This document shows positions 4,035-17,258 of a stretch of DNA of 32,000 nucleotides, one piece after another. A program made the position numbers and the translations under genes. Each line of letters starts with the position of its first letter. Positions within the stretch are counted from its first letter, which is position 1. Source of the DNA: a bacterium. Its GTDB lineage: Bacteria > UBP7 > UBA6624 > JBBIMK01. The notes under the pieces are model-generated. The model had not been told where the DNA came from and did not search any database. It saw only the letters and a program-made list of their open reading frames with translations. The stretch spans positions 37,497 to 69,496 of the forward strand of contig JBBIMK010000008.1 in NCBI GenBank assembly GCA_037444445.1. Reading direction: 5' to 3'.

Positions 4035-4062
4035 TTGACAAGGACGGAGCAGGTGGTATAAT
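4035..4062 (+). promoter_or_regulatory. Near-consensus sigma70 promoter with extended -10 (TTGACA-16-TGgTATAAT) and an A/T-rich UP-like tract
   Basis: TTGACA at 4035-4040 and TATAAT at 4057-4062, preceded by TGG (the TGn extended -10). The upstream sequence is GGTTTTTATTTATGCGTATA. It points into a 540-nt tract with no convincing CDS ahead of cusC. Confidence 0.6.
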
Positions 4063-4455
4063 AAGATAGGATGAGCGCACAAAGAAAGGTTGCACTATTT
4101 TTCATCCTTAGCGTTGGGATGTCGTGGATAGGGGTAATGAATTGTTCCTCTACCAGGCTCGAATCTCACCATTCGGGAATGCCCATACCTGCCTCTTCAG
4201 TGCCCTGCCCGAAGTGCAGCCCAACCCAATTGCCTGTTCTTCACATTCTTACCTGCGTTCATCCCAATGCTTCCGTTTTCTTCCCCACTTTTGAGTCAAC
4301 GAGAGCTTTCCAGCCTGCACTGCTCTCTACGCTGAGTGATTTCGTCCATTCCCCGGCAGTATGGCATTCACCGAGTCCAGCAGGTTTTCATCTAAAACCG
4401 CCGAATCAAGTTCCACTTTATCTGTTAAACCTCTCTATTTTATCCTGATTCACTA

Positions 4456-4521
4456 CCCTGATTTCCCCGCATAATTAATCAGGGGACCCTTACAGCCTTC
4501 TCCTAAAAATACCCTGTAAGG
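4456..4521 (+). promoter_or_regulatory. Two adjacent 8-bp inverted repeats in the cusC leader (candidate operator or RNA structure)
   Basis: IR1 is CCCTGATT (4456-4463) / AATCAGGG (4477-4484) with a 13-nt loop. IR2 is CCTTACAG (4488-4495) / CTGTAAGG (4514-4521) with an 18-nt loop. The 3' arm of IR2 overlaps an AAGGAGG. TACCCTG recurs at 4454 and 4510. Confidence 0.4.
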
Positions 4522-4605
4522 AGGTGGTGAATTCTGGAACGAAGGCTCTCACACTTTCTACTTTATTCTTATAGAAAATATACAGCAAGGCTATCGGACT
4601 GGCTG

Positions 4606-5934
4606 ATGGAAAATGCGGGCAATGGATACAGGTTTGCCCGATATAAAAAAGACTGGATACCCATCCTTCTTCTTCTCTTCTGGAGTGGAATCGGATGGGC
4701 GGAGAATCCTGCCATTACACCCATAGAAGCGTTTGTCCGGGAGGCGCCGGAGAAGAACCCGGAAATTCAGGCACTCACTTATCAGTGGGAAGCGATGAAG
4801 GCACGGATTTCTCCCGCGAAAACCCTGCCTGACCCTACCATTGGCATCCGTCTGATGAATATGGGAAACCGCTTGAGCCTCGGGAAGGATATGAACTCTA
4901 TGGTGGGAATCTCTTTCTCACAGATGGTGCCGTATGCGGGCAAACTCCCCCTGATGGGCAAGATTATGGAAGAAGAAGCCAACCAAATGTTTTATATGCT
5001 CCAGGAGAAAAGGTGGATGCTCACCGCGGAAGTTAAAAAAACCTACTACTCTATCTACCACACCGACCGGATGCTGGAAATTCTTCAGGAGAATAAAACC
5101 ATCCTGGAGAATATGGAGAAGTCAATGGAAGCGATGTATCAAGTTGGGGAAGCGCTCCAGCAGGATGTCCTGAAGGCCCAGGTGTCGATTTCTAAGCTTC
5201 TGGAGCAGATGCTGGACCTCCGGAGGCAGAGAAAGGAGTTAGAGGCACGGATGAACCGTCTTCTGGGAAGAAGCGTCACGGCGCCCATCGGAAATCTCCA
5301 GGTGTCTGAGGAGATTTCCCTGCCTTACACGCTGGAGGACTTCAGAGAACTGGCGCTGAAATATTCGCCCACCCTGAGAGTGGAGGAAAAGGGAATCTCC
5401 AGGGCGGAGTATCAAGTGAAACTTGCGGAAAGGGAGTTCAAGCCGGACGCCATGTTCACATACTCTCGTTTCGCTCGTGGAAACTTTGGTCCCGCCTGGG
5501 AAGCCATGATGGAAATCACCGTGCCGTTATACAAGGAGAAAAAGCAGGCTTTTCAACTGATAGAAGCCCGGCAAAAGAAAGAGCAGGCAGAGCAGGCGCT
5601 TCAAGGGAAGAAAAACGAAATTCTCCAGGGGCTGGATGAAATGTTCGCCGCTCTTCAAACCAATGAGGAAATCTATCATCTCCTCGTGGATGGAATCATC
5701 CCACAGGCGGAACTCACTTTTCGGGCATCTATGTCCGCTTATCAAGTGGGAAAGGTGGATTTCCTCACCACCCTGGATAGTCTGATGACTCTTTACGATA
5801 TGAAGATGCGCCTTCACATGACCCTGGAGATGTTTCATAAAGACCTGTCGGATGTGGAGGCAATGATTGGAAAATCCTTAGAGATTCATTCTGGAGGTGA
5901 AACTCATGGAATCAAAACGACTCAAGAAAACTAA
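4606..5934 (+). CDS. cusC: Outer-membrane efflux protein, TolC/OMF family (CusC-like)
   Basis: 442-aa ORF with a hydrophobic N-terminal signal-like segment (WIPILLLLFWSGIGWA). Its long heptad-rich helical repeats are typical of outer-membrane factors. It overlaps the next gene (cusB-like) and is followed by cusA. It has no lipobox Cys. Confidence 0.8.
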   Translation: MENAGNGYRFARYKKDWIPILLLLFWSGIGWAENPAITPIEAFVREAPEKNPEIQALTYQWEAMKARISPAKTLPDPTIGIRLMNMGNRLSLGKDMNSMVGISFSQMVPYAGKLPLMGKIMEEEANQMFYMLQEKRWMLTAEVKKTYYSIYHTDRMLEILQENKTILENMEKSMEAMYQVGEALQQDVLKAQVSISKLLEQMLDLRRQRKELEARMNRLLGRSVTAPIGNLQVSEEISLPYTLEDFRELALKYSPTLRVEEKGISRAEYQVKLAEREFKPDAMFTYSRFARGNFGPAWEAMMEITVPLYKEKKQAFQLIEARQKKEQAEQALQGKKNEILQGLDEMFAALQTNEEIYHLLVDGIIPQAELTFRASMSAYQVGKVDFLTTLDSLMTLYDMKMRLHMTLEMFHKDLSDVEAMIGKSLEIHSGGETHGIKTTQEN

Positions 5935-7330
5935 CTGGTTTATCGGGGCGGGGTTGATACTCACCCTTGTGGGGGGATACACTGCCCATCAGCAAGGCTG
6001 GCTGACCCTGCCTTTCTTTTCCCCAGCTATTACCGCACAACCTATGGAAGGGATGAGCGGAATGGAGATGGGGAAATCAAAAGAGGAGCATGCGGGAATG
6101 GCCGGGATGGAAGGTATGGAGGAAATGGAGGAAGAGGTAGCGCCCAAACGCATTATGATTGACCCGGAAATGCAGCAGATTATCGGCGTCAGAATCCAGA
6201 AGGCCGGATATATGCCCCTCGTGAAAGAAATTCGGACGGTGGGACGAGTGGAATATGACGAAACCCGACTGAAAGCGGTTACAGTTCGGGTGATGGGCTA
6301 CATTACCAAACTTCTTGTGGATTACACAGGGAAAGAGGTAGAAGAAGGCGAACCACTTTTTACCTTTTATTCTCCTGAGCTTGTTTCTGCGCAGCAGGAA
6401 TATCTTCTGGCGTTAAAAGGGGCGAACACTCTTTCCGGTTCCTCCTATTCGGAAATCAGCCAGGGGAGCAAAACCCTGCTGGAATCTGCAAGAAAGCGTC
6501 TTCTCCTCTGGAACTTCACTGAGGAACAAATTCAATCTCTGGAAAATCGTGGAGAGCCAGAGATTGAGTCCTATGTCTATTCCCCGGTTTCTGGGACCGT
6601 GGTAGAAAAGATGGCTCTACAAGGCAAGCAGGTGATGCCCGGGGAAGATTTATACAAAATTGCAGACCTCTCTCAAGTCTGGGTTATTGCCGACCTGTAT
6701 GAGGAGGATGCTCCCCTATTGCGAGTTGGCCAGCATGCTTCCATTCAACTCACCTATTACCCTGGCAAAGCCTTCCACGGCTCTGTGGATTACATCTATC
6801 CCTATTTAGACGAGAAAACGAGAACGATCCGGGTCCGCTTCGCCTTTCGAAACCAGCGAGAAAATGCCCGTGGCGTGAGGGAGGAAACCCGGCACCTGGA
6901 ACACGAAGGAATGGAAGGGATGGAAATGCCTGGAATGCCCGGCATGAATCACACACAGCACCAGGCTCCAAATTCAACCTCTGAAAATTCTTCCGGATGG
7001 CTTCTGAAACCCGGCATGTTCACCAATGTGACAGTGAATGTGAATCTCGGGCAGTATCTTGCGATTCCGGAGGACTCTGTCATAGACACGGGCTTACGTC
7101 AGGTCGTTTTCGTGGACCTGGGGAATGGACATTTCGAGCCCCGGAATGTGGTTCTCGGGCATCGGGTGAACGGCTACTACGCCGTTCTCTCAGGCTTGAA
7201 GCCAGGAGAGCCTATTGTGACCAGCGCCAACTTCCTGCTGGATGCAGAGAGCAAAATCCGCACTGCGATGCCTGCGATGCCGGGAATGGATATGAAAGGG
7301 ATGAAGATGCCCGGACATGCAGGACATTAG
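5906..7330 (+). CDS. cusB: Efflux RND periplasmic adaptor (membrane fusion protein), CusB-like with three Met-rich tracts
   Basis: The adaptor core is recognisable (PLFTFYSPELVSAQQEYL, SPVSGTVVEKM, LYKIADLSQVWVIADLYE, LKPGMFTNVTV, IPEDSVIDTGLRQVVFV). It also has an N-terminal membrane anchor and MxxM-type tracts. I prefer the ATG at 5906 because GGAGG lies 8 nt upstream. The longest ORF starts at the GTG at 5897. Confidence 0.85.
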   Translation: MESKRLKKTNWFIGAGLILTLVGGYTAHQQGWLTLPFFSPAITAQPMEGMSGMEMGKSKEEHAGMAGMEGMEEMEEEVAPKRIMIDPEMQQIIGVRIQKAGYMPLVKEIRTVGRVEYDETRLKAVTVRVMGYITKLLVDYTGKEVEEGEPLFTFYSPELVSAQQEYLLALKGANTLSGSSYSEISQGSKTLLESARKRLLLWNFTEEQIQSLENRGEPEIESYVYSPVSGTVVEKMALQGKQVMPGEDLYKIADLSQVWVIADLYEEDAPLLRVGQHASIQLTYYPGKAFHGSVDYIYPYLDEKTRTIRVRFAFRNQRENARGVREETRHLEHEGMEGMEMPGMPGMNHTQHQAPNSTSENSSGWLLKPGMFTNVTVNVNLGQYLAIPEDSVIDTGLRQVVFVDLGNGHFEPRNVVLGHRVNGYYAVLSGLKPGEPIVTSANFLLDAESKIRTAMPAMPGMDMKGMKMPGHAGH

Positions 7331-7345
7331 AGGTGAAGGCTGGCT

Positions 7346-10300
7346 ATGATTGAACGACTAATAGACTGGTCTGCACGGAATAAATTCCTCGTTCTTCTCG
7401 CCACCTTCTTTGCCATTCTCGGAGGTATCTGGGCGATTAAGAACACTCCGCTGGATGCCATCCCCGACCTCTCCGATGTTCAGGTCATCATCTACACCGA
7501 ATGGATGGGAAGAAATCCCAGAATCATAGAGGACCAGATTACCTATCCCATTTCCACCACTATGCTCTCTGCGCCGAAAGTGAAGGCGGTTCGGGGCATT
7601 TCTGCCTTCGGCTTCTCCTTCATCTATGTCATCTTTCAGGATGGAACGGACATCTACTGGGCGAGGACTCGTGTTCTGGAATATCTGGAAAAAATCAAAG
7701 GGCGTCTCCCGCCCGGCATCACGCCAATCCTCTCCCCGGATGCCACGGGAGTGGGCTGGGTTTATATTTATGCCCTCGCAGATAAAACCGGTCAGAACGA
7801 CCTGGCACAACTTCGGACCATCCAGGACTGGTATCTGAAGTACTATCTGGAAAGCCTGCCTGATGTGGCAGAGGTGGGCACCTTTGGAGGTTTTGTTCGG
7901 GAATATCAGGTGGAAGTTGACCCGAATAAACTTCTTGCCTTCGGCATCCCGTTGAAGATGGTGATGGATGGCATCCGAATGAGCAATCTGGAGGTGGGAG
8001 GTGGAGCCATTGAACTCGCCCAGACGGAATATATGGTGCGAGGGATAGGATATGTGCAAAAAGTGGAGGACCTGAAAAATATCCCTCTGGGCACCAATAT
8101 GATGGGCACGCCGATTTATCTCAAGGATGTGGCGAGAGTGACCCTGGGACCCGATATGAGGAGAGGAGCGGCGGACCTGAATGGAGAGGGCGATGTGGTG
8201 GGAGGCATCGTTGTGATGCGGTATGGAAAAAACGCCCTGCAGGTCATTAACCGGGTGAAGGTGGCGATAGAAGAGTTTCAGAAAACCCGACTCCCCCCCG
8301 GTGTTGAAATCATCCCCGTCTACGACCGTTCCAAACTCATTCTACAATCCATTGCTACCCTTCGCCGAACCCTGATTGAAGAGTCCATCATCGTGATTCT
8401 CGTGTGTCTCATCTTTCTCTTCAGCCTGAGAAGTTCCGGCGTGGTCATCGTCACTCTACCCATTGCCGTGATTCTTTCCTTCATCCCGATGATGTATCTA
8501 CGGCTGACCTCCAACATTATGTCGCTGGGCGGGATTGCCATCGCCATCGGAGCCATGGTTGATGCGGCTATCGTGATGATTGAAAATGTCCACAAGCGGC
8601 TGGAGCATTTTGCACTGGAACATCCTGACTGGGCTCTGACATCAGAGGGTAGAGCCCAGCGAAGTCAAATCCTGATTCACGCCATGCAGGAAGTGGGAAA
8701 ACCCCTCTTCTATTCCCTTCTGGTTATCACGGTCTCCTTCCTCCCGGTATTCACCTTAGAATATCAGGAGGGGAGGCTTTTCAAGCCATTAGCCTTCACG
8801 AAAACCTTCTCCATGTTTTTTGCCTCCTTTCTTTCCATCACCCTGGTGCCTGCCATCATGGGACTATTTATTGAGAAGAAGGTCATCCCGGAGAAGAGAA
8901 ATCCCATCAGCCGATTTCTTATCAGTCTGTATAATCCTGTTGCCCGTTTTGCACTGCGCTGGCGGTTCATCACCATCACCCTCGGTCTTATGGCAACTTT
9001 TCTCGCTTACCCTGCCTATAAAAAACTGGGGAGTGAATTTATGCCACCTCTCTATGAGGGTACCCTTCTATATATGCCAATGACCACACCGGGGATTTCT
9101 ATCTACGAATCCCGGCGGGTTCTGCAAATACAGGATAAACTCCTGAAGCAATTCCCTGAGGTTGACCAGGTGCTGGGGAAAGTGGGGAGAGCCACCACAC
9201 CCACGGACCCTGCTCCCCTGCCCATGGTAGAAACCGTAGTCTCTCTCAAACCTGAACACGAATGGAGGAAAGGGCTGACCTGGGAAAAACTCTTTGACGA
9301 GATGGATAAAGAAATTCAAATCCCCGGATTCGTGAATGTGATGACCATGCCCATCAAAAATCGGGTGGATATGATCACCACGGGGATACGAACACCCGTA
9401 GGAGTGAAGGTCTTCGGGCCGAAACTGGAGGAGGTTCAGGAGATAGCGGAAGAAATTGAACGCATCATTCCACAGGTGGAAGGCACGAGAAGCGCCATTG
9501 CCGAGCGCTCTTTAGGCGGGTTTTACTTGAACATCACCCCCAGGCGGGAAGCTCTGGCTCGCTACGAACTTTCCATTATGGATGTCCAGGATGTGATAGA
9601 AATGGCAATCGGTGGAACTGTCATCTCCACCACGATTGAGGGCCGAGAACGCTACCCCATCAATATCCGGTATCCGAGGGAACTTCGGCTCTCTCCAGCC
9701 CTCCTGAAAAGGGTATTGATTCAAACGCCTATGGGCTACTCCATCCCGATTTCGCAGGTGGCGGATATAGAACTCACTCAGGGTCCGGATATGATACGAA
9801 GTGAGCGGGGACAACTCACTGGCACAGTTTATGTTGATGTGGCTGGCCGGGACATTGGCTCCTATGTGGCGGAAGCCAAAAAACTGGTGGAAGAAAAAAT
9901 CAAACTCCCTCAGGGTTATTCCATCCTCTGGAGCGGGCAATACGAGTATATGCAGAGAGTTACAGAAAAGTTAAAATATATGATTCCCCTTACCCTTTTC
10001 ATCATCTTCCTGCTGATGTATCTCAACTTCGGCTCCGTGGGGAAGACTCTCGTAGTGATGCTTTCCATTCCCTTCGCTCTCACCGGGAGTATGCTGGGAA
10101 TATATTTGATGAATTATAATCTCAGCGTGGCGGTGTGGGTGGGAATCATTGCTCTCGCCGGCGTTGCCGCTGAAACCGGCGTGGTGATGCTGGTGTATAT
10201 TGATGAAGCCTATGAACGATACAAAAAACAGGGGATGATGCGCACCCGCCAGGACCTCTCTGATGCCATCATTGAGGGAGCAGTGCAAAGGGTTCGCCCC

Positions 10301-10513
10301 AAGATGATGACCGTAATGGCTGTCATGATGGGGCTGATTCCCATCCTGTGGAGCCACGGAGCAGGTGCGGATGTGATGCGGAGAATCGCCATGCCGATGA
10401 TTGGCGGTATGGTCACTTCTACCATTCTCACTCTCTTCATCATTCCTTCCATCTTTCACATCTGGAAATCTTTTGAACTCCCTAAACAGAAGCAAACTGG
10501 AGGTGAATCCTGA
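7346..10513 (+). CDS. cusA: Heavy-metal (Cu/Ag) efflux RND inner-membrane pump, CusA family
   Basis: 1055 aa with 12-TM RND architecture and strong resemblance throughout to CusA/SilA (MIERLIDWSARNKFLV..., GVGWVYIYAL, AIGAMVDAAIVMIENVHK). The motifs LLYMP, PLPMVET and VDMITTG correspond, from my memory of E. coli CusA, to the Met573/Met623/Met672 metal-binding triad. Confidence 0.95.
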   Translation: MIERLIDWSARNKFLVLLATFFAILGGIWAIKNTPLDAIPDLSDVQVIIYTEWMGRNPRIIEDQITYPISTTMLSAPKVKAVRGISAFGFSFIYVIFQDGTDIYWARTRVLEYLEKIKGRLPPGITPILSPDATGVGWVYIYALADKTGQNDLAQLRTIQDWYLKYYLESLPDVAEVGTFGGFVREYQVEVDPNKLLAFGIPLKMVMDGIRMSNLEVGGGAIELAQTEYMVRGIGYVQKVEDLKNIPLGTNMMGTPIYLKDVARVTLGPDMRRGAADLNGEGDVVGGIVVMRYGKNALQVINRVKVAIEEFQKTRLPPGVEIIPVYDRSKLILQSIATLRRTLIEESIIVILVCLIFLFSLRSSGVVIVTLPIAVILSFIPMMYLRLTSNIMSLGGIAIAIGAMVDAAIVMIENVHKRLEHFALEHPDWALTSEGRAQRSQILIHAMQEVGKPLFYSLLVITVSFLPVFTLEYQEGRLFKPLAFTKTFSMFFASFLSITLVPAIMGLFIEKKVIPEKRNPISRFLISLYNPVARFALRWRFITITLGLMATFLAYPAYKKLGSEFMPPLYEGTLLYMPMTTPGISIYESRRVLQIQDKLLKQFPEVDQVLGKVGRATTPTDPAPLPMVETVVSLKPEHEWRKGLTWEKLFDEMDKEIQIPGFVNVMTMPIKNRVDMITTGIRTPVGVKVFGPKLEEVQEIAEEIERIIPQVEGTRSAIAERSLGGFYLNITPRREALARYELSIMDVQDVIEMAIGGTVISTTIEGRERYPINIRYPRELRLSPALLKRVLIQTPMGYSIPISQVADIELTQGPDMIRSERGQLTGTVYVDVAGRDIGSYVAEAKKLVEEKIKLPQGYSILWSGQYEYMQRVTEKLKYMIPLTLFIIFLLMYLNFGSVGKTLVVMLSIPFALTGSMLGIYLMNYNLSVAVWVGIIALAGVAAETGVVMLVYIDEAYERYKKQGMMRTRQDLSDAIIEGAVQRVRPKMMTVMAVMMGLIPILWSHGAGADVMRRIAMPMIGGMVTSTILTLFIIPSIFHIWKSFELPKQKQTGGES

Positions 10514-10746
10514 TGAAATTTTTTGACCCTGTTTGCAACGTTTTCCTGGACACGCTGGACGAAGAGTTGCAGGCCCCTCACGGCAACCACATTCACTACT
10601 TCTGCTCTCCCACCTGCCGGAAAATCTATGAGGAAGCACTGGAATACGAGGAGACCATCCGAAATCCACTGGAGTTCCATGCCGGTGGCAGGGAAAAGGA
10701 GCCATACCTTTTCATCAAGAGGGTAGATACAGGGTATGAGGCGTAG
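10513..10746 (+). CDS. Small YHS/TRASH-like protein (degenerate motif DPVCN...HYFCSPTC)
   Basis: 77-aa ORF whose ATG overlaps the cusA stop (TGATG). Its pattern, DPVC-x23-YFCSxxC-xxxY, matches the YHS domain consensus (DPVCGM...YYFCSxxC...F), but the Gly-Met after the first Cys is missing. It has no signal peptide. Confidence 0.6.
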   Translation: MKFFDPVCNVFLDTLDEELQAPHGNHIHYFCSPTCRKIYEEALEYEETIRNPLEFHAGGREKEPYLFIKRVDTGYEA

Positions 10747-10779
10747 AAGAAAAAACTGAACACCTGGAGGTGAGAAAAT

Positions 10780-11268
10780 ATGAAACTTGTATGGGCGGTC
10801 ATTCGGGAAAATAGACTACGAGAAGTTCAAAAAGCCCTGCAAAAAGAAGGCTTTACCGGGGCAACCGTAGTCCATGTTTCCGGTATGGGGGAAGAAGATT
10901 CTCATCCTCCCCTCACCCTTTTTCCCCACATCAAAATGGAAATCATCACTTCGGATAACCTGGCAGAAAAAGCAGTGGAAACGATTATGAATGCTGCCTG
11001 GACGGGCTTGCCAGGAGACGGAGGGATTGCCATCTTACCGGTGGAGAAGGTCTGGAAAATCCGACATAAGGAACGACTCATCACTCTTTTGGAAAAAGTG
11101 ATTGACCCGGTTTGCAAAATGAAGATAGAGAAAATGAAAGCAGCGGGTAAGACAGAGTTTGCAGGAACCAGTTACTACTTCTGTTCTGAAATATGCCTGT
11201 TAAAATTCCAGGAGTCTCCGGAAAAATTTCTCCGGGCAAGCAAGAGCTCTAAAGTAAAGGAGGAATAA
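10780..11268 (+). CDS. PII (GlnB/GlnK)-like domain fused to a C-terminal YHS domain
   Basis: Residues 1-105 align by eye with PII (MKLVWAVIRENRLREVQKALQKEGFTGATVVHVSGMG...IKMEIITSD...AEKAVETIMNAAWTGLPGDGGIAILPVEKVWKIR). The T-loop is shortened and has no Tyr51 equivalent. The C-terminus, IDPVCKMKIEK...TSYYFCSEICLLKFQESPEKF, is a YHS domain. A strong SD (GGAGGTGA) is present. Confidence 0.8.
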   Translation: MKLVWAVIRENRLREVQKALQKEGFTGATVVHVSGMGEEDSHPPLTLFPHIKMEIITSDNLAEKAVETIMNAAWTGLPGDGGIAILPVEKVWKIRHKERLITLLEKVIDPVCKMKIEKMKAAGKTEFAGTSYYFCSEICLLKFQESPEKFLRASKSSKVKEE

Positions 11269-11270
11269 AT

Positions 11271-11564
11271 ATGAAATTGAATCCGGCAGGATTCGCAAGC
11301 GCTCTGGGGATAACCTCAGCCATCCTTTACTTTGTGTGCGGCATCCTTGCCGCGGTCACTCCTCAGTTTCTCCTCTACATTTTCAAGACCTGGTTCCACG
11401 GGATGAATCTGGATGCACTCGTCCCTGCTGACGGACACATTTTCAATCTGACTCTGTTCATCATCGGGCTTATCACCTTCACGGCTACCGGCTGGGGCAG
11501 TGGGTGGTTGGTGGCAATTATTTACAATTTGTGGCAAAAGAAAAGCCCGGAGAAAGGAGAGTGA
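11271..11564 (+). CDS. Small integral membrane protein (2-3 TM), function unknown
   Basis: 97-aa ORF starting 2 nt after the previous stop, with an SD (GGAGGA). Hydrophobic segments: ITSAILYFVCGILAAV and LTLFIIGLITFTATGWGSGWLVAIIY. Confidence 0.6.
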   Translation: MKLNPAGFASALGITSAILYFVCGILAAVTPQFLLYIFKTWFHGMNLDALVPADGHIFNLTLFIIGLITFTATGWGSGWLVAIIYNLWQKKSPEKGE

Positions 11565-11569
11565 TAGAG

Positions 11570-11779
11570 ATGGTAATGGAAATTGACCCCGTGTGCGGTA
11601 TGAGGGTGGATACACGGATTCCTGCTGCTAAATCTGAGCATGAAGGGATTACTTATTTCTTCTGCTCCGTTGGGTGCAAGGGCATCTTTGACCAGGACCC
11701 CGACAAATACAGCCGACTATACTGGAAGAAAAGAGGGATGGATAAACCTGAATCTCCGGAGGTGGAGACTGATGGTTGA
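11570..11779 (+). CDS. YHS domain protein (canonical DPVCGM...YFFCSxGC)
   Basis: MVMEIDPVCGMRVDTRIPAAKSEHEGITYFFCSVGCKGIFDQDPDKY. I chose the ATG at 11570 because the SD AAAGGAGAG lies about 9 nt upstream. The longer ORF from 11504 overlaps the preceding gene. Confidence 0.8.
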   Translation: MVMEIDPVCGMRVDTRIPAAKSEHEGITYFFCSVGCKGIFDQDPDKYSRLYWKKRGMDKPESPEVETDG

Positions 11780-11987
11780 GAAGGACCCGGTATGCGGGAT
11801 GCCGGTAGATACAAAACGGGCAGGCAGTAGCCTTTCCTTTCAGTATAACGGAAGGACCTACTACTTTTGCTCTCACTATTGCCGGGAGCATTTTGAAGCG
11901 GACCCGGAACGATATTACCGGGGAAGGCAGACAGAGATGATGGGCCCACATAAAGAATTCAGGGAAAAAGGAGGTGAAAATGAATGA
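11772..11987 (+). CDS. YHS domain protein (second tandem copy)
   Basis: MVEKDPVCGMPVDTKRAGSSLSFQYNGRTYYFCSHYCREHFEADPERYY. The ATG at 11772 is preceded by GGAGGTGGAG and overlaps the previous gene by 8 nt (ATGGTTGA). Confidence 0.8.
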   Translation: MVEKDPVCGMPVDTKRAGSSLSFQYNGRTYYFCSHYCREHFEADPERYYRGRQTEMMGPHKEFREKGGENE

Positions 11988-12481
11988 AGGGCCGAAATTC
12001 TCTTCACTGGATTCTGGCACTGGCGTTTACAGGGCTTTTTCTCGGTGTGGCAGACGATTCTTCCTCTACGCCTCATGATGAGGGGATGATGGGCGGGATG
12101 ATGCCTATGATGCAGATGTGCCACCAGATGATGTCCCGACAGATGTCGGGAATGGGCGGCGGTATGCATCATCCTATGATGGACATGATGGGGCATGAAC
12201 CGCAACCCATGACCCCCGAGGAGCGGGAAATCGCTAAAATGATGGCGGATGCAGAGGTGAAAGAAGCCCAGCTGCACCGAATGCTTCTGGAAGAGAATGT
12301 GAATCCGGATGCCCTGAAGGGAAAGATACGAGAGATTCATGACCTTCAGGTGGAAATCCAGTTCAGGGAAATCATGACCGCTCGTGCAAAAGCATCGGCT
12401 CAGAAACCTTCCGAAAAGGGAGAAAGCAAGAGTGAGCACGAGATGCATCACATGGGCGGCATGGGCAGGATGGGGAAATAA
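11984..12481 (+). CDS. Met/His-rich periplasmic protein with a Spy/CpxP/ZraP-like helical domain
   Basis: The signal peptide is WILALAFTGLFLGVA. A tract of about 45 aa follows, containing about 17 Met plus His (EGMMGGMMPMMQMCHQMMSRQMSGMGGGMHHPMMDMMGH). Next comes a helical region like periplasmic stress/metal-sensor chaperones (MTPEEREIAKMMADAEVKEAQLHRMLLEENVNPDALKGKIREIHDLQVEIQ). The tail is HEMHHMGGMGRMGK. The start overlaps the previous stop (ATGA). Confidence 0.75.
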   Translation: MKGRNSLHWILALAFTGLFLGVADDSSSTPHDEGMMGGMMPMMQMCHQMMSRQMSGMGGGMHHPMMDMMGHEPQPMTPEEREIAKMMADAEVKEAQLHRMLLEENVNPDALKGKIREIHDLQVEIQFREIMTARAKASAQKPSEKGESKSEHEMHHMGGMGRMGK

Positions 12482-12525
12482 CGGAGGGTGAAGAGGAGGA
12501 ATTGCCCCCTTCCATCAGGAATCGC

Positions 12526-12556
12526 GGGGGGTCCTCTACCTGCTCCGGGACCCCCC
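12526..12556 (+). terminator. GC-rich hairpin in the only sizeable intergenic gap of the module (possible attenuator or weak terminator)
   Basis: GGGGGGTCC (12526-12534) pairs with GGACCCCCC (12548-12556), giving a 9-bp stem and a 13-nt loop. No U-tract follows (CCGATTCCACTTT), so it is not a classical intrinsic terminator. Confidence 0.3.
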
Positions 12557-12583
12557 CCGATTCCACTTTAAGGAGGAATGCAT

Positions 12584-13270
12584 ATGCCTACATGCGCTGT
12601 GTGCTTGATGAAAGTCTCACGCGAGGTTAAATTTCGCACAGAAATTAAGAAGCGAACCTACTATTTTTGCAGTTCCCGCTGTCTGATGCAATTTCAGAAA
12701 ACTCCGGAAAAATATTCTCCTGTGCATATACGAACACCGGCATTTGTGGGAATTCCTTCCCGGGTTCATCTCAGCCAATCCGCCTTTACAGCATTGATTT
12801 TATCCGTGGCGGAGATATTCAAAAAAGAAGCCATGGGCTACCTTCTGGGAAATTGCAAGGGCGAAGTGGTGGAGATAGACCATGCGATACCCTTTCAAAC
12901 GGGTAAAAGAGGTTATACTTACAGTGCAGTTTCTCTCCGGCGGCTGGAGTGGGTTAGAGACCTGACAGAGCGCATCCATCCAGGATTGCAGTGGATTGGA
13001 GATTATCATTCTCACCCTCAGCATGGAAATGTCCTGCGTCTTCACCTTCCCAGCATTCTGGATGTGGAAGATATGGAACCCGGGTATGTTTATTTAGTCA
13101 TTTCAGTGAACGAAGTACAAGTTTGCTTACCCTGGCGCACGAGCAGGAAGAGGGGAACTCTCGCTGGAACTCTGGGAAAATTGCGGATGGAGATTGCGGG
13201 CTACTGTCTTGATAAAGAGCAAAATTTGCGCCGTTTAGAGGTGGATGCCCCCTGGTTGAAAAGAAAATAA
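12584..13270 (+). CDS. TRASH/YHS-type zinc-ribbon domain fused to a JAB/MPN+ (JAMM) metalloprotease domain
   Basis: The N-terminus MPTCAVCLMKV...RTYYFCSSRCLMQFQKTPEKY follows C-x2-C-x21-C-x3-C. The C-terminal domain has the JAMM signature elements: KKEAMGYLLG (Glu), IGDYHSHPQ (HxH) and PSILD (S-x2-D). Spacing between HxH and S is 12 residues, against the usual 7. The ATG at 12584 lies 7 nt after AAGGAGG. The ORF also opens at 12578. Confidence 0.75.
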   Translation: MPTCAVCLMKVSREVKFRTEIKKRTYYFCSSRCLMQFQKTPEKYSPVHIRTPAFVGIPSRVHLSQSAFTALILSVAEIFKKEAMGYLLGNCKGEVVEIDHAIPFQTGKRGYTYSAVSLRRLEWVRDLTERIHPGLQWIGDYHSHPQHGNVLRLHLPSILDVEDMEPGYVYLVISVNEVQVCLPWRTSRKRGTLAGTLGKLRMEIAGYCLDKEQNLRRLEVDAPWLKRK

Positions 13271-13359
13271 AAAAAGCCCTATTTCTTTATGCTTTTTTCA
13301 CGGTAGTCCAGCCAGCACTTCTATGGGCGCACGGGGCAGGGCATCTCTCCACAGAAGAA

Positions 13360-15384
13360 ATGGCTTCGGGACTGGTGGTCGTTGGGCGCTATCAGTTTCT
13401 GCTGGAAAAAGAAGCCACGCCACTCACCCGGGGAAAGACATCATACATTACCGTTCGCATCTTTGATACTTATGCGAAGGCTCTGCTGAAGGGGAAGCGA
13501 GTGCTTATGGCTATCAAACTTCCTCAAGCAGCGATTCCCCCCGGCCAAATCCCGGTACCCACGCTTATACCACCTTCTTCTCAGCACTCTTCTACAGGAA
13601 TAGCAGTGGACAGTCCTGTTTCCTGGACCCCAGAGGGCAACCCGGATGTATCCGACCTACTGCCCACAGAAGAAACTGCGGAGGGAGGGCATTATCGGAT
13701 AAAATTCACTCCTGAAACTTCCGGGGTTCATCTATTGAAACTGGCACTGTTTGTGGACGATGCATCCTCACCTCTTCTAATAGAATTCCCTCTCCAGGTA
13801 AAAAACCCGGCGTTCACGCTCACACGAATCGTATTTTTTACGCTTCTCCTGCTATTCCTCACCGTTATTTCTCTGAGCGTTTTCTCTCTCCGCAGAAGAT
13901 ATGGCTCCTCCGATTCACAGTCTTTGAATCTACTGGAAATTCCATGGTTAAACCGGTTTATTCGCTGGAGATATTTTCAAACAGTTTTTCAAGTTCCCCT
14001 GCTGTTTTTGTTGATTCTCATCATCTTTGCAGGTTTATATGATGCACCTGATGGGAGCAAAAATTTCGCCACGATTCTCACCTGGACAGTGTGGTGGGCG
14101 GGGATTATCTTTACCTTCGTTCTACTGGGAAGAGTCTGGTGTTTTATGTGTCCTGTGGGAGGGCTGGCGGATTGGACGGGGAAATGGGCTCAGCCCCGTC
14201 GCCTTCTACCCAAACTCCTTCGTTCTTTGTGGATTCCCACCGTTCTATTCCTTTTTCTTACCTGGCTGGATGGAGCGGTGGGCATCGTAAACAATCCGCG
14301 CTTGACCGCCTGGGTCCTGATGTCTATTGCCGGGCTTGCAATTCTCATTTCTCTGCTGTTTGCCCGTAGGACTTTTTGCCGGTATATCTGCCCGATTGGA
14401 GGAATGATTGGGTTATATTCTATGTTTTCCCCGGTAGAGTTGAGGGTGAAATCTCATGAAATCTGTCGTTCACACAACCCGAAAACCTGCTATCTGGGTT
14501 CTCCAGATGGGGAAGGATGCCCGATGTTTGAATATCCAGCGGTGATGAATCGCAACAATTACTGTAACTTTTGCGGGGAGTGCGTCAAAACCTGCTCGCC
14601 GAACAATCTTGTCTTGAGATTTCGCCCGTTCGGGACAGACCTTTTTACTCTGGTAAATCCCCGTCTGGATGAGGCATTTTTTGCCCTTACATTAACAGGA
14701 GTAAGCCTGGTGGCGGTAGGGCATATGATTGCTCCCTGGCATTCCTGGATGCTGGGGCTTTCCAGGCTCATCGGATTGGGAAGGCTGGGTATTACCAGCG
14801 AGAAAACCTTAACTGTCATCGGTTTCACCATCACCCTGTTCAGTATATCTGTGGTGATTTTGCCTGCTCTGGTTTACGGTGCAGTGCTCTGGCTTCAAAA
14901 GTTTTCTGTGGGGCAACCCATTCTGGCCGACCGAGGGAACGACGGCAGGGCAGAAAAAGTGGCTCCACATCAAATTTTCAGCCGTTTTGCTTACGCCTTC
15001 ATTCCTGTGGGATTATCCATGCATCTGGCTCACAATATCCAGCATTTATTAACTGAAGGAGCCGTTATCATCCCCGCCACACAAAAATTCCTGAACAACT
15101 ATACTTTCTTTAATCTCGGCATTTCCAACTGGCAGGCTTATTCTTTCCCTCATTCCCCCTATATCACCTGGCTTCAAATCACACTCGTCCTCATATTTTT
15201 GCCCTTTTCTCTGCGAATACTTGATAGGGTGTGGCATCAGTATTTTTCTCCATCAGCCCGATTTCAGTGGGCAATGGCTCCCTTACTCCTTTTGGTTCTC
15301 GTTCTGGTGTGGCTGAATCTCTTCCTTATCCAGCAAGATATGTCTGCCCGGCACACAACCCTGTTGACAGCCATCGCCCGATGA
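13360..15384 (+). CDS. Membrane polyferredoxin (NapH/MauN/CcoG-like 4Fe-4S protein) with an N-terminal periplasmic beta-rich domain
   Basis: It has multiple TM helices, two CxxCP motifs at helix ends (VWCFMCPVGGLADW and TFCRYICPIGGMIG) and a ferredoxin motif (CNFCGECVKTCSP). A further Cys group is CRSHNPKTCYLGSPDGEGCP. The coordinates are from the first ATG. The in-frame upstream sequence (from 13252) encodes a signal-peptide-like KKIKKALFLYAFFTVVQPALLWAHG, so the real start is probably upstream and non-canonical. Confidence 0.75.
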   Translation: MASGLVVVGRYQFLLEKEATPLTRGKTSYITVRIFDTYAKALLKGKRVLMAIKLPQAAIPPGQIPVPTLIPPSSQHSSTGIAVDSPVSWTPEGNPDVSDLLPTEETAEGGHYRIKFTPETSGVHLLKLALFVDDASSPLLIEFPLQVKNPAFTLTRIVFFTLLLLFLTVISLSVFSLRRRYGSSDSQSLNLLEIPWLNRFIRWRYFQTVFQVPLLFLLILIIFAGLYDAPDGSKNFATILTWTVWWAGIIFTFVLLGRVWCFMCPVGGLADWTGKWAQPRRLLPKLLRSLWIPTVLFLFLTWLDGAVGIVNNPRLTAWVLMSIAGLAILISLLFARRTFCRYICPIGGMIGLYSMFSPVELRVKSHEICRSHNPKTCYLGSPDGEGCPMFEYPAVMNRNNYCNFCGECVKTCSPNNLVLRFRPFGTDLFTLVNPRLDEAFFALTLTGVSLVAVGHMIAPWHSWMLGLSRLIGLGRLGITSEKTLTVIGFTITLFSISVVILPALVYGAVLWLQKFSVGQPILADRGNDGRAEKVAPHQIFSRFAYAFIPVGLSMHLAHNIQHLLTEGAVIIPATQKFLNNYTFFNLGISNWQAYSFPHSPYITWLQITLVLIFLPFSLRILDRVWHQYFSPSARFQWAMAPLLLLVLVLVWLNLFLIQQDMSARHTTLLTAIAR

Positions 15385-15439
15385 ATAAACTGGAAATGAA
15401 TGCTTCAAAGGAAATACAGCAATGGAGAGGTGAGGTGAG

Positions 15440-15748
15440 ATGTGTAGATTCATCTGGACGGTAATTTTAGTGGTAACTCTGAGTTCAGCAGGGTTAGCCC
15501 ATACAGGAGAGAAACACGAGAAGTTGCAGGAGTCACCCCCATCTGCGGAAGTTACAACGCCAGAGAAAGAAATGAACCAGGGAGTGGAACACGAGATGAT
15601 GGAAGGAGCATCAGAAACCCGGCCTGCTCCTCAGGTGCCTTTGAATCCGGCGAGAGATGTGGTTTTGCTTGTCATATTCACCGCTGGTGGAATCTGGCTG
15701 GCGATTCGCAACTACCAGCATTTCTCTAAGGGGGCTGCTTCCCGATGA
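15440..15748 (+). CDS. Small exported/anchored protein (signal peptide, acidic His/Met-containing region, C-terminal TM)
   Basis: 102 aa with an SD (GAGGTGAGGTGAG). The N-terminal signal is FIWTVILVVTLSSAGLA followed by HTGEKHEK. The C-terminal TM is VVLLVIFTAGGIWLAI. The stop overlaps the cytochrome b start (ATGA). Confidence 0.55.
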   Translation: MCRFIWTVILVVTLSSAGLAHTGEKHEKLQESPPSAEVTTPEKEMNQGVEHEMMEGASETRPAPQVPLNPARDVVLLVIFTAGGIWLAIRNYQHFSKGAASR

Positions 15749-16740
15749 CCACCTGGCGAGAAAGATTCGGTCTTCACGCGCTGGCGTACCCGGTTCCATC
15801 ACACAGTCACCGATTAGACTATGCCCTCGGAGCTATCGCTCTCTCGGGCTTTCTGATTCTCATTCTCACGGGCATCTGGCTGGGGCTTTTATATCAGGTC
15901 GGTGCCACCAGTGCCTATGAAAGTGTGGAGGCTCTTCAGGGTCTGGACCGGTGGGTGCGAAACCTACATTACTGGTCCGCCCACTTCACCTATCTTACGG
16001 TGCTTCTTCATGTGGTTCGGGTAGGGATTACAGGGGCCTATCGCACTCCGAGAGAAGGAATCTGGTGGTTGGGAGTTTTTCTCCTCGCTACCGTCTCTGC
16101 TATATTCCTCACCGGAACCATCATCAAGTGGGACCAGGAAGGATATGAAGCCTACGCCCATCTGGAAGAAGGCTTCGCATACGCCGGACCTCTTGCCAAT
16201 TTCTTGAAAAGCAGATTTACTGGTTCTGTCGCATTTTCCTCTCTCTTCTTCACCCATACTTCCCTTCTCCCGATTTTAGTTCTTCTTCTGATTGCAGGAC
16301 ATTTACTTCTGATAAAAATCCACGGGATTTCTGAATTACCTGGCGAGACCTCTTCCACTGCACGCATTCCTTTTACGCAGGTTATGAAAACCATTTCCCT
16401 TTATACAGGTGGATTTTTTATTCTGCTGGTGATACTTGCCACTTTCCTCCCAGCCCCATTGGGGCCTAACTTCGTAGAAGGGTTTGAGGTTACTAAACCT
16501 CCGTGGCCCTTCCTCTGGATTTATGCCCTGGAGAACTGGCTTGGAATGATGGGTATGGTATGGGGACCTGCCCTGCTCTTCCTCGGATTATTGGCTATGC
16601 CACTGCTGGACCGGGGGAAAAATCGGCGAGCATGGATTACCCTATTCCTCCTTGTCCTTCTACTTCTGATTGCCCTTGGTTTATATGCTGCCCTCTCTGT
16701 TCCCGTTCCTCATCTGGAAATGCAAACAGGTGAATCCTGA
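15745..16740 (+). CDS. Cytochrome b (b6-type His spacing) with a fused subunit-IV-like C-terminal domain
   Basis: Helix B is NLHYWSAHFTYLTVLLH (H-x13-H). Helix D is FTHTSLLPILVLLLIAGH (H-x14-H, the b6/Firmicutes-type spacing). The C-terminal KPPWPFLWIYALENWLG occupies the position of the PEWY Qo motif. No Rieske or cytochrome c gene is adjacent. Confidence 0.8.
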   Translation: MTTWRERFGLHALAYPVPSHSHRLDYALGAIALSGFLILILTGIWLGLLYQVGATSAYESVEALQGLDRWVRNLHYWSAHFTYLTVLLHVVRVGITGAYRTPREGIWWLGVFLLATVSAIFLTGTIIKWDQEGYEAYAHLEEGFAYAGPLANFLKSRFTGSVAFSSLFFTHTSLLPILVLLLIAGHLLLIKIHGISELPGETSSTARIPFTQVMKTISLYTGGFFILLVILATFLPAPLGPNFVEGFEVTKPPWPFLWIYALENWLGMMGMVWGPALLFLGLLAMPLLDRGKNRRAWITLFLLVLLLLIALGLYAALSVPVPHLEMQTGES

Positions 16741-16799
16741 TGAAAGAAAACGAACCTAATGTGGAAGAAAACGAAAATCTTCAGAGGAGGTAGAGTGAA

Positions 16800-17258
16800 A
16801 TGTCACAGAAGAAAGGCTCAACCAGGGAAGCAGAGAAAGCCAGGTCTTTATCGCGAGTGATAGGGGTGACTGGTTTTCTCGCCCTGGGGCTTGGACTCTT
16901 TTTCACTGTCCGCCTATTTCTTACGGGGAAACCGGTGGAGATAAAAACCAATGGAGAAGCTCCACCTTACAGGCGAGTGGAGACACGCCCTGTTCTTCCC
17001 TCTTCTCTTTTCACTGGTGCTGTGGCAGAAGCCTATCAGGCTGCCCACGATATGCCCGATTTCATTGACCAGTTTTACTGCTACTGCCAGTGCAAGGAAT
17101 ATCACGGGCACAAAACTCTTCTTACCTGTTTTACTGATAAGCACGCCGCTAATTGCGACATTTGTTTATATCAAGCCCTCACTGCTGTCCAGATGAGCAA
17201 AGAAGGAAAGTCTGCGGATGCCATTCGCCATTTCTTCTCCTCCCGTTTCGCCCAGTAA
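16800..17258 (+). CDS. Membrane-anchored CYCxC-motif (PCYCGC-like) Cys/His-rich protein, putative metal-binding
   Basis: The N-terminal TM anchor is VIGVTGFLALGLGLFFTV. The extracytoplasmic domain contains FYCYCQCKEYHGHKTLLTCFTDKHAANCDICLYQAL. As I recall, this resembles the PCYCGC/CYCXC family of unknown function. The SD AGAGGAGG lies 8 nt upstream of the start. Confidence 0.7.
   Translation: MSQKKGSTREAEKARSLSRVIGVTGFLALGLGLFFTVRLFLTGKPVEIKTNGEAPPYRRVETRPVLPSSLFTGAVAEAYQAAHDMPDFIDQFYCYCQCKEYHGHKTLLTCFTDKHAANCDICLYQALTAVQMSKEGKSADAIRHFFSSRFAQ

Follow-up and report, generated by a model that had tools for sequence, protein, structure and literature searches.

A conserved fusion of a four-cysteine TRASH module to a JAMM-type domain in a bacterial Cus efflux island

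In a 32,000-nucleotide stretch of contig JBBIMK010000008.1 from an uncultured bacterium (hereafter the window), a gene at 12584..13270 on the forward strand encodes a protein of 228 residues that joins a TRASH/YHS module to a JAB/MPN+ domain of the JAMM type, both halves scoring above the gathering thresholds of their Pfam families (YHS and Prok-JAB). This TRASH-JAB fusion recurs in related assemblies within an island of copper/silver-efflux genes, and its two halves are both under purifying selection. The reading that we favour, although tentatively, is that an active JAMM peptidase was recruited into the Cus island and that the TRASH module couples it to Cu(I)/Ag(I) status. JAMM/MPN+ enzymes are, to our knowledge, described almost only as ubiquitin or ubiquitin-like (Ubl) isopeptidases or as phage and defence components, and the known roles of TRASH/YHS modules are those of copper sensors or chaperones. 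Full-text literature searches for JAMM together with "TRASH domain", or JAB together with "YHS domain", returned no papers on the pairing, in line with the first-pass annotation of this DNA, which knew of no link between JAMM proteins and TRASH domains or copper operons. The architecture thus appears to be undescribed, a known enzyme fold placed in a new domain architecture and context.

The first-pass annotation had placed the fusion of a four-Cys TRASH/YHS module to a JAMM domain in an open reading frame (ORF) at 12578-13270. This ORF is present, and the cysteines, the glutamate, the HxH and the S-x2-D were all recovered at the nucleotide positions given for them; it is the choice of the first ATG as start that needed revision. 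Starting at that ATG (12578) would give a protein of 230 residues. Because an upstream AGGAGG is separated by 7 nt from the second ATG (12584) and by 1 nt from the first, the second is likely to be the true start, as judged from this spacing, and the public gene call for the same protein (P0001), identical to it, is also 228 residues long. Residue numbers below refer to the 228-residue version.

The TRASH/YHS module spans residues 1-46 (12584..12721, + strand), with Cys4, Cys7, Cys29 and Cys33 arranged as C-x2-C-x21-C-x3-C (codons at 12593, 12602, 12668 and 12680). Pfam YHS (PF04945) matches residues 8-46 with 32.5 bits against a cutoff of 30.3 (E 8.5e-8). The module is followed by a linker, residues 47-60 (12722..12763, +), between the TRASH and JAB halves; in the AlphaFold2 (AF2) model the predicted local distance difference test score (pLDDT) falls to 66 at residues 41-50, and standalone JAB relatives start just past this stretch. 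The JAB/MPN+ domain itself, residues 61-228 (12764..13267, +), is delineated by Pfam, the family alignment, the AF2 model and Foldseek, with Pfam Prok-JAB covering residues 67-180 at 33.5 bits against a cutoff of 25 (E 4e-8). Its catalytic set on the same strand consists of E82 (12827-12829), H142 (13007-13009), H144 (13013-13015), S157 (13052-13054) and D160 (13061-13063), and the 12-residue spacer between the HxH and the serine, PQHGNVLRLHLP, lies at 13016..13051 (+). As neither a transmembrane-like segment (maximum hydropathy KD19 1.39) nor a signal peptide was found in the protein, it is predicted to be soluble and cytoplasmic.

The fusion is present as an unbroken ORF in four independent assemblies: an NCBI metagenome-assembled genome contig (P0001, 100% identity), a Logan SRA assembly (P0185, 94%), a JGI metagenome (L009, 86%) and two related ENA/NCBI metagenome assemblies (L001/L002, also retrieved as L015; 65%). 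For two of the homologues the gene call is too short, and translation of the upstream sequence restores the first Cys pair (MRKCPVCLMKV and MNMPTCAVCLMKI). With the true starts used, the four cysteines as well as E82, H142, H144, S157 and D160 are kept in all four fusions. When the gene was compared with that of L009 by the Nei-Gojobori method, the ratio of nonsynonymous to synonymous substitution rates (dN/dS) was 0.09 for the TRASH module, 0.14 for the JAB domain and 0.58 for the linker. Since the values for both domains are this low, purifying selection acts on both halves.

The fusion is restricted to a single lineage of uncultured bacteria. When 5.8 billion proteins were searched by word index, and 1.84 billion representative proteins exhaustively by HMMER with a profile of the JAB region, the architecture came back from one clade only. 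PF04945 is carried by the fusion clade alone among the proteins from the indexed searches, and the same holds for the TRASH motif among 151 sequences from the exhaustive search. In a metagenome scan, 15 of the 16 loci match residues ~56-224 of the fusion only. The fusion was not found among GTDB species representatives, whether the scan started from a single sequence or from an alignment, and none was found on plasmids by tblastn, where the TRASH part alone matched YHS regions of Cupriavidus P-type ATPases. We are therefore dealing with a very rare gene, seen in four assemblies of one uncultured lineage.

Several lines of evidence identify the JAB half. The E, G, H, H, S and D of the JAMM motif are invariant in a 56-sequence family alignment, and the catalytic residues of the fusion align with those of PDB entries 2kcq (by HMMER) and 6fjv. 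The AF2 model, built from a 33-row alignment, has a mean pLDDT of 90 and a predicted template-modelling score (pTM) of 0.78. Foldseek returned 212 PDB matches at E<=1e-3 for it, and all 50 that were listed are entries with MPN-domain JAMM enzymes: the best is 6fnn, a Caldiarchaeum Rpn11 homologue with ubiquitin (E 6e-10, template-modelling score 0.77-0.80 on the target), and further matches include Rpn11, CSN5, BRCC36 and the bacterial Ubl deubiquitinase 8tyx (E range 6e-10 to 1e-7). A profile of the family found the same JAMM enzymes in the PDB by sequence (E ~1e-8). The MPN fold suggested by the first-pass annotation thus held up, with Rpn11-type JAMMs as its matches, and the model indicates that the JAB half is an Rpn11-like, MPN-fold JAMM. 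Judged by its motif, it is probably a catalytically competent zinc metallopeptidase, and the superposed folds and aligned residues give indirect support to a predicted single Zn site at which the two His and the Asp meet, with the Glu placed as general base. Compared directly with the Rpn11-type JAMMs (Caldiarchaeum subterraneum 6FNN/6FJV; Rpn11, CSN5 and BRCC36; 8TYX), the fusion has the MPN fold in common, and the N-terminal helix, the E-x2-G-x-L-x-G, the HSH and the S-x2-D align; however, identity is ~20%, the spacer has 12 residues rather than 7, there is no Ubl partner or E1/E2 nearby, and the fusion carries an N-terminal TRASH module and sits in a bacterial copper-efflux operon.

The canonical spacing H-x-H-x7-S-x2-D is not found in the fusion, and when aligned to 2kcq by HMMER its JAB domain shows a 5-residue insertion between the HxH and the serine. 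Both the length of this spacer and the two extra histidines within it had been singled out in the first-pass annotation. The length of 12 residues is correct, although it does not set the protein apart: among the 150 matches listed (P0002-P0151), 131 relatives carry the motif, with a spacer of x12 in 82 of them and of x7 in 25. The histidines proved not to be conserved: at the corresponding positions most of the family has an aromatic residue and Pro, with His in 3 of 83, and the 65%-identical homologue has Arg at the first. Because x12 is so frequent among the relatives and the extra histidines are not conserved, the loop reads as a trait of the subfamily, and neither as a defect nor as a special metal-binding feature.

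A separate observation concerns a clade-specific loop by the active site, VLRLHLPS (13031-13054, +), which is kept in the four fusions and not in the wider JAB family, and which resembles the ubiquitin tail LVLRLRGG. The resemblance is probably due to chance; it is conceivable that the loop acts as an auto-inhibitory pseudo-substrate.

Turning to the TRASH half, its gap of 21 residues between the two Cys pairs fits the TRASH motif C-x2-C-x19-22-C-x3-C. An alignment was made of every YHS-like module in the window, L001 and L009, including one that is fused to a P-II protein in the window. The six non-fused YHS modules and the P-II-fused module read D-P-V-C...FCSxxC, while the JAB-fused module has Cys (Cys4) in place of the Asp in all fusions and does not carry the YHS Asp-x2-Cys signature. 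Asp plus three Cys is the ligand set of the YHS domain (PMC4626032). Since a cysteine replaces the signature Asp, the fused module is assigned on its sequence to the four-Cys TRASH type. Its C-terminal half (YYFCSSRCLMQFQKTPEKY) is nearest to that of the P-II-fused module (YYFCSEICLLKFQESPEKF), with 38-40% identity, and this likeness is consistent with an origin of the TRASH module inside the island. Searched against the PDB, a profile of the module matched phenol hydroxylase in its YHS region (E 2.6e-7), and also a MYM zinc finger (E 7e-4). The AF2 model of the whole protein shows the module with strands at 18-21 and 24-27 and a helix at 31-39 (pLDDT 84-95). As TRASH has been grouped with the treble-clef zinc fingers L24e, YacG and FCS/MYM, for which contacts to protein or nucleic acid are described (PMC4999995), a C4 TRASH module can be a plain structural Zn site.

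The genomic setting of the fusion is shared between loci. An invariant core, comprising CusC-CusB-CusA, a small YHS protein, a Met/His-rich protein and TRASH-JAB, was found at three fusion loci (the window; L001/L002/L015; L009), co-directional and in the same order, at 65-86% identity. In the window, where all of these genes are on the + strand, CusC (4606-5934, Pfam OEP), CusB (5897-7330, Pfam HlyD_D23/CusB) and CusA (7346-10513, Pfam ACR_tran) make up a heavy-metal resistance-nodulation-division (RND) efflux system. The small YHS protein (11769..11987), whose ORF opens at 11640 and whose likely start is MVEKDPVCGM at ~11769, is the orthologue of 68-71 aa YHS genes in L001 and L009. The Met/His-rich protein (11984..12481; 165 aa) has a signal-like N-terminus and a weak CpxP/Spy-type Metal_resist match, and is always encoded directly upstream of the fusion (55% identity in L001, 79% in L009). 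The fusion gene in turn overlaps the start of the next gene, whichever that is, in L001 and L009, and from this arrangement it appears to be translationally coupled to the downstream gene at both loci.

The JAB half belongs to a larger family. With a threshold of E<=1e-3 the exhaustive search matched 256 clusters, and with E<=1e-10 it matched 96; the family numbers at least 256 clusters at the 50% identity level. Of the 150 matches listed, nearly all are standalone proteins of 165-200 aa (~175 aa being typical), and their alignment to the fusion runs from about residue 60 to its C-terminus. Set against them, the fusion JAB is a full-length member (profile E 1e-38 to 1e-10, residues 60-225) which shares the x12 spacer, an AIPFQ(T/S)A motif and a C-terminal G-T-(L/V)-G beta extension; what the standalone proteins (P0003-P0151), such as RKX71435.1 from candidate division WOR-3, do not have is the N-terminal domain. 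Nine of them could be placed on contigs, all in non-metal contexts. Using a hidden Markov model (HMM) of the operon YHS modules, we found no YHS ORF at 23 loci with standalone relatives, and the model scored at fusion loci only (49-69 bits on the fusions). With no YHS gene near the standalone JAB genes, the halves are therefore not normally adjacent separate genes, and the fusion recurs across its four assemblies; both points answer a concern raised in the first-pass annotation. Because the standalone relatives have no nearby YHS gene and occur in non-metal contexts, it appears that a standalone JAB gained the TRASH module specifically in the copper island of this lineage.

In the reading that we favour, the JAB half would derive from the standalone JAB family and would have acquired its four-Cys TRASH module inside the CusCBA copper/silver-efflux island. 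For the steps that follow we infer that the module would bind Cu(I)/Ag(I), taken up directly or passed on by the small YHS chaperones encoded beside it, and that the metal-loaded TRASH would act allosterically through the short linker to switch the peptidase, or would target it. A rise in copper would then lead to cleavage of a cytoplasmic protein or peptide, and the substrate would be something other than a ubiquitin-like tag encoded nearby. A more specific version, in which this would be the first metal-gated JAMM protease, with a Cu(I)/Ag(I)-loaded TRASH module (possibly loaded via YHS chaperones) switching on an Rpn11-like peptidase that controls a component or regulator of the efflux island, is in this full form somewhat unlikely. 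The general option of a metal-gated peptidase, one of two offered by the first-pass annotation, is plausible by analogy with known systems.

Two such systems are informative. Archaeal CopR and CopT (helix-turn-helix plus TRASH) and the TRASH chaperone CopM have the same TRASH motif as the fusion and likewise belong to a copper-resistance cluster (PMC7830388; Ettema et al. 2003, cited there); in CopR/CopT, however, TRASH is the Cu-responsive element on a DNA-binding effector, in archaea and with no protease, whereas the fusion is bacterial and carries a JAMM domain. Deletion of TRASH weakens the Cu response of archaeal CopR (PMC7830388). The YHS-adenylyl cyclase of Mycobacterium phlei resembles the fusion in combining a YHS/TRASH-class module, a short linker and a catalytic domain, and 1-10 uM Cu2+ activates this cyclase but not its isolated catalytic domain (PMC4626032). 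Its module is C-terminal with Asp and three Cys, whereas that of the fusion is N-terminal with four Cys, and the catalytic domain is a cyclase rather than a predicted peptidase.

Several points weigh against copper coupling. The fused C4 module is unlike the neighbouring YHS modules with their Asp and three Cys, and could be a Zn docking finger; its sequence matches in the PDB are the phenol hydroxylase YHS region and the MYM zinc finger; and four-Cys treble clefs of the TRASH family (L24e, YacG, FCS/MYM) are classed as zinc fingers (PMC4999995). In addition, the downstream genes differ between loci, and no candidate substrate emerged from the operon and loci analysed. The same three properties of the module, a classical C4 site created by the Asp-to-Cys change, its PDB matches and its classification with Zn treble clefs that contact proteins or nucleic acids (PMC4999995), speak for the strongest rival, according to which the peptidase is active and the TRASH module is a structural Zn(II) treble clef that docks the JAB domain on a partner, with no Cu sensing or gating. 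The translational coupling of the fusion to the membrane-protein gene that comes next points the same way; candidate partners would include the YHS chaperones, the P-II-YHS protein and, at the membrane, the Fer4_5 and cytochrome b proteins. Set against this, TRASH with the motif C-x2-C-x19-22-C-x3-C has been described as what makes archaeal CopR respond to Cu (PMC7830388), the module was acquired in the copper island only, and no partner emerged. We regard a structural or docking Zn finger as possible, and nearly as likely as metal gating.

A further alternative is a classical Ubl-deconjugating or Ubl-maturing JAMM of the desampylase, Mec+ or QbsD type, for which the genes of the beta-grasp substrate and the E1 would lie at another place in the genome and TRASH would be an accessory. 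Known prokaryotic Ubl-linked JAMMs include Mec+/CysO, QbsD/QbsE, the desampylase HvJAMM1 and CBASS Cap3. They are single-domain JAMMs of bacteria or archaea with the catalytic motif that the fusion also has. What defines them is either the presence next to them of genes for a beta-grasp Ubl and an E1-like protein or that of a CD-NTase together with an E1-E2 gene, and the fusion locus has neither. The best fold and sequence matches of the fusion are indeed Ub/Ubl-specific JAMMs, among them the ubiquitin-bound archaeal Rpn11 homologue and the bacterial Ubl deubiquitinase, and there is a weak match to the NCBIfam desampylase model, which at 16.8 bits is far below the cutoff of 130. Neither the ORFs of the 32 kb window, as scanned with Pfam, nor the precomputed annotations of the L001 and L009 genes include a ThiS/MoaD/Ubl or E1 (ThiF-type) domain, and no Ubl or E1 gene lies beside the nine standalone relatives examined. 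Nor do the C-termini of the neighbours help this alternative. Several operon proteins end in GG-x(2-6), including CusA (...TGGES*, 10495-10513) and the small YHS protein (...KGGENE*, 11968-11987), and the diglycine codons of these two are the GGAGGTGA Shine-Dalgarno sequence of the next gene. The GG tails of CusA, the small YHS protein and the Met-rich protein were accordingly rejected as JAMM substrates, two being encoded by the GGAGGTGA Shine-Dalgarno sequence and the third not being conserved in L001. The earlier statement that no beta-grasp or diglycine-ended small ORF is visible nearby therefore stands, these tails being by-products of ribosome-binding sites. Taken with the missing partner genes, they leave a Ubl-specific role unlikely.

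A CBASS or other defence JAB was also considered and rejected, as the PADLOC matches are partial (residues 77-148, at most 29.5 bits) and there are no partner genes; in particular, no CBASS genes (CD-NTase, E1-E2 Cap2) were found in the window.

The second option of the first-pass annotation was a JAB fold re-purposed as a non-catalytic metal-binding or buffering site, which would make the protein a two-site metallochaperone. The His-rich and Met-rich metal-binding proteins around the fusion, and the His that the loop by the metal site carries in this clade, would suit it. The loop His is not conserved even in the closest homologue, though, and the JAB dN/dS of 0.14 reflects a divergence as expected for an enzyme. 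Moreover, the non-catalytic reading is weakened because the general-base Glu82 and Ser157, which catalysis and not metal binding requires, are invariant in the fusions and in the standalone family, and we consider it very unlikely. Finally, an assembly or frameshift artefact joining two separate genes, to which the usual occurrence of the JAB half as a standalone gene might point, is excluded by the unbroken ORF in independent assemblies at 65-100% identity, the absence of an upstream YHS gene from the 23 loci with standalone JAB relatives, and the purifying selection on both halves.

A conserved and selected fusion in a Cus island suggests that proteolysis may be wired directly to copper status or, at minimum, that a JAMM enzyme has a client among the copper-handling proteins. 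If a metal-gated JAMM is what the fusion encodes, it would tie JAMM proteolysis to metal homeostasis independently of ubiquitin, in an operon without a recognisable transcriptional copper sensor: among the Pfam-scanned ORFs of the window, no copper-responsive transcription factor could be recognised. The fusion is also one of few contextual clues to the substrate of the standalone JAB family, with its at least 256 clusters, its x12 loop and no Ubl partner.

The remaining genes of the island are, like the fusion, on the + strand. The cluster, 4071-17258, is headed by a sigma-70-type promoter at 4035..4062 (+; TTGACA-16-TATAAT with an extended TG), which matches the consensus at 12 of 12 positions and is the sole such site in 13.8 kb, the total promoter counts not being above those of shuffled sequences. 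No convincing terminator was found between this promoter and 17258. Right after the promoter lies an ORF of 125 aa rich in Cys, Pro and His (4071-4448), with no family match. Between CusA and the conserved small YHS gene there is a strain-specific insert (10513..11779, +; Pfam) that is not in L001 or L009. It contains a YHS-like ORF of 77 aa (10513-10746, +), a P-II (GlnB-like) protein with a C-terminal YHS module (10780-11268, +; Pfam P-II 1.7e-19, YHS 2.9e-15), a DUF5676 protein with two transmembrane segments (11271-11564, +) and a YHS protein (~11570-11779, +; ORF listed from 11504, likely start ~11570). The P-II-YHS protein, encoded directly after CusA and without a counterpart in L001 or L009, is a second unusual combination of YHS with a signalling or effector domain in this operon, and could be a Cu-responsive regulator of the RND pump. 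Altogether four YHS-type modules precede the fusion. The ORFs opening at 11504 and 11640 overlap, but with the revised starts at ~11570 and ~11769 the genes are tightly packed.

Downstream of the fusion, the window encodes a polytopic membrane iron-sulfur protein of the Fer4_5 (NapH/NosR/CcoG) type (13360..15384, +; Pfam Fer4_5 4e-12 and a weak NCBIfam NapH match). It has 674 aa, with ~9 transmembrane-like segments, two Fer4_5 motifs and a soluble N-terminal domain of ~150 aa without a family match, and may serve the island as a metal reductase or as a quinol-linked redox module. The gene is present in the window and in L001, where its start overlaps the end of the fusion, and not in L009. It is followed by a small His/Met-rich membrane-anchored protein (15440-15748, +), a cytochrome b (15745-16740, +) and a CYCXC/PCYCGC protein (16800-17258, +; NCBIfam 106 bits against 90, the family being labelled "(seleno)protein"), the last of which is found in the window and L001. 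In L009 the small His/Met-rich protein and the cytochrome b come directly after the fusion, with a 4-nt overlap.

The cluster lies between tig plus a tRNA cluster on one side and nuo genes on the other. The L009 locus represents a strain with ~86-90% protein identity at the same chromosomal site (tig...cus...nuo), and it is without the P-II-YHS, DUF5676, extra YHS, Fer4_5, PCYCGC, phosphatase and GT2-Usp genes. The island is thus modular and fast-evolving. That it might be a foreign DNA island was rejected, the GC content being 0.48-0.52 throughout. The Rfam scan gave five tRNAs and nothing else. Trigger factor (tig) adjoins the cluster of five tRNA genes (344-1570 and 1590-2127, − strand); its only close match is a 90%-identical copy in a JGI metagenome, and its best named relatives are 25-29% identical. 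The host lineage appears from its sequences to be deep-branching and uncultured.

The contexts of the nine standalone relatives offer some further observations. In some the JAB gene follows DUF302 (literature searches on DUF302 with copper gave nothing useful), follows a Fer4 and CCG pair, or lies between an aldehyde dehydrogenase and a beta-eliminating lyase. Three of the nine share a conserved operon of JAB, a SAM-dependent methyltransferase, an MJ0043_C protein (~419 aa) and a HIT hydrolase. Loci of this kind (L003 7001-10022; L004 7001-10150; L005 274-3423; L006 3622-6677) come in part from WOR-3-like bacteria, and the operon may be an uncharacterised pathway that holds a clue to the substrate of the family. 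In two independent lineages a standalone JAB gene overlaps the 3' end of gltX, which encodes glutamyl-tRNA synthetase, by ~20 nt (L012 4632-6537; L013 3069-4974; L014 4536-6594), suggesting translational coupling with a housekeeping gene.

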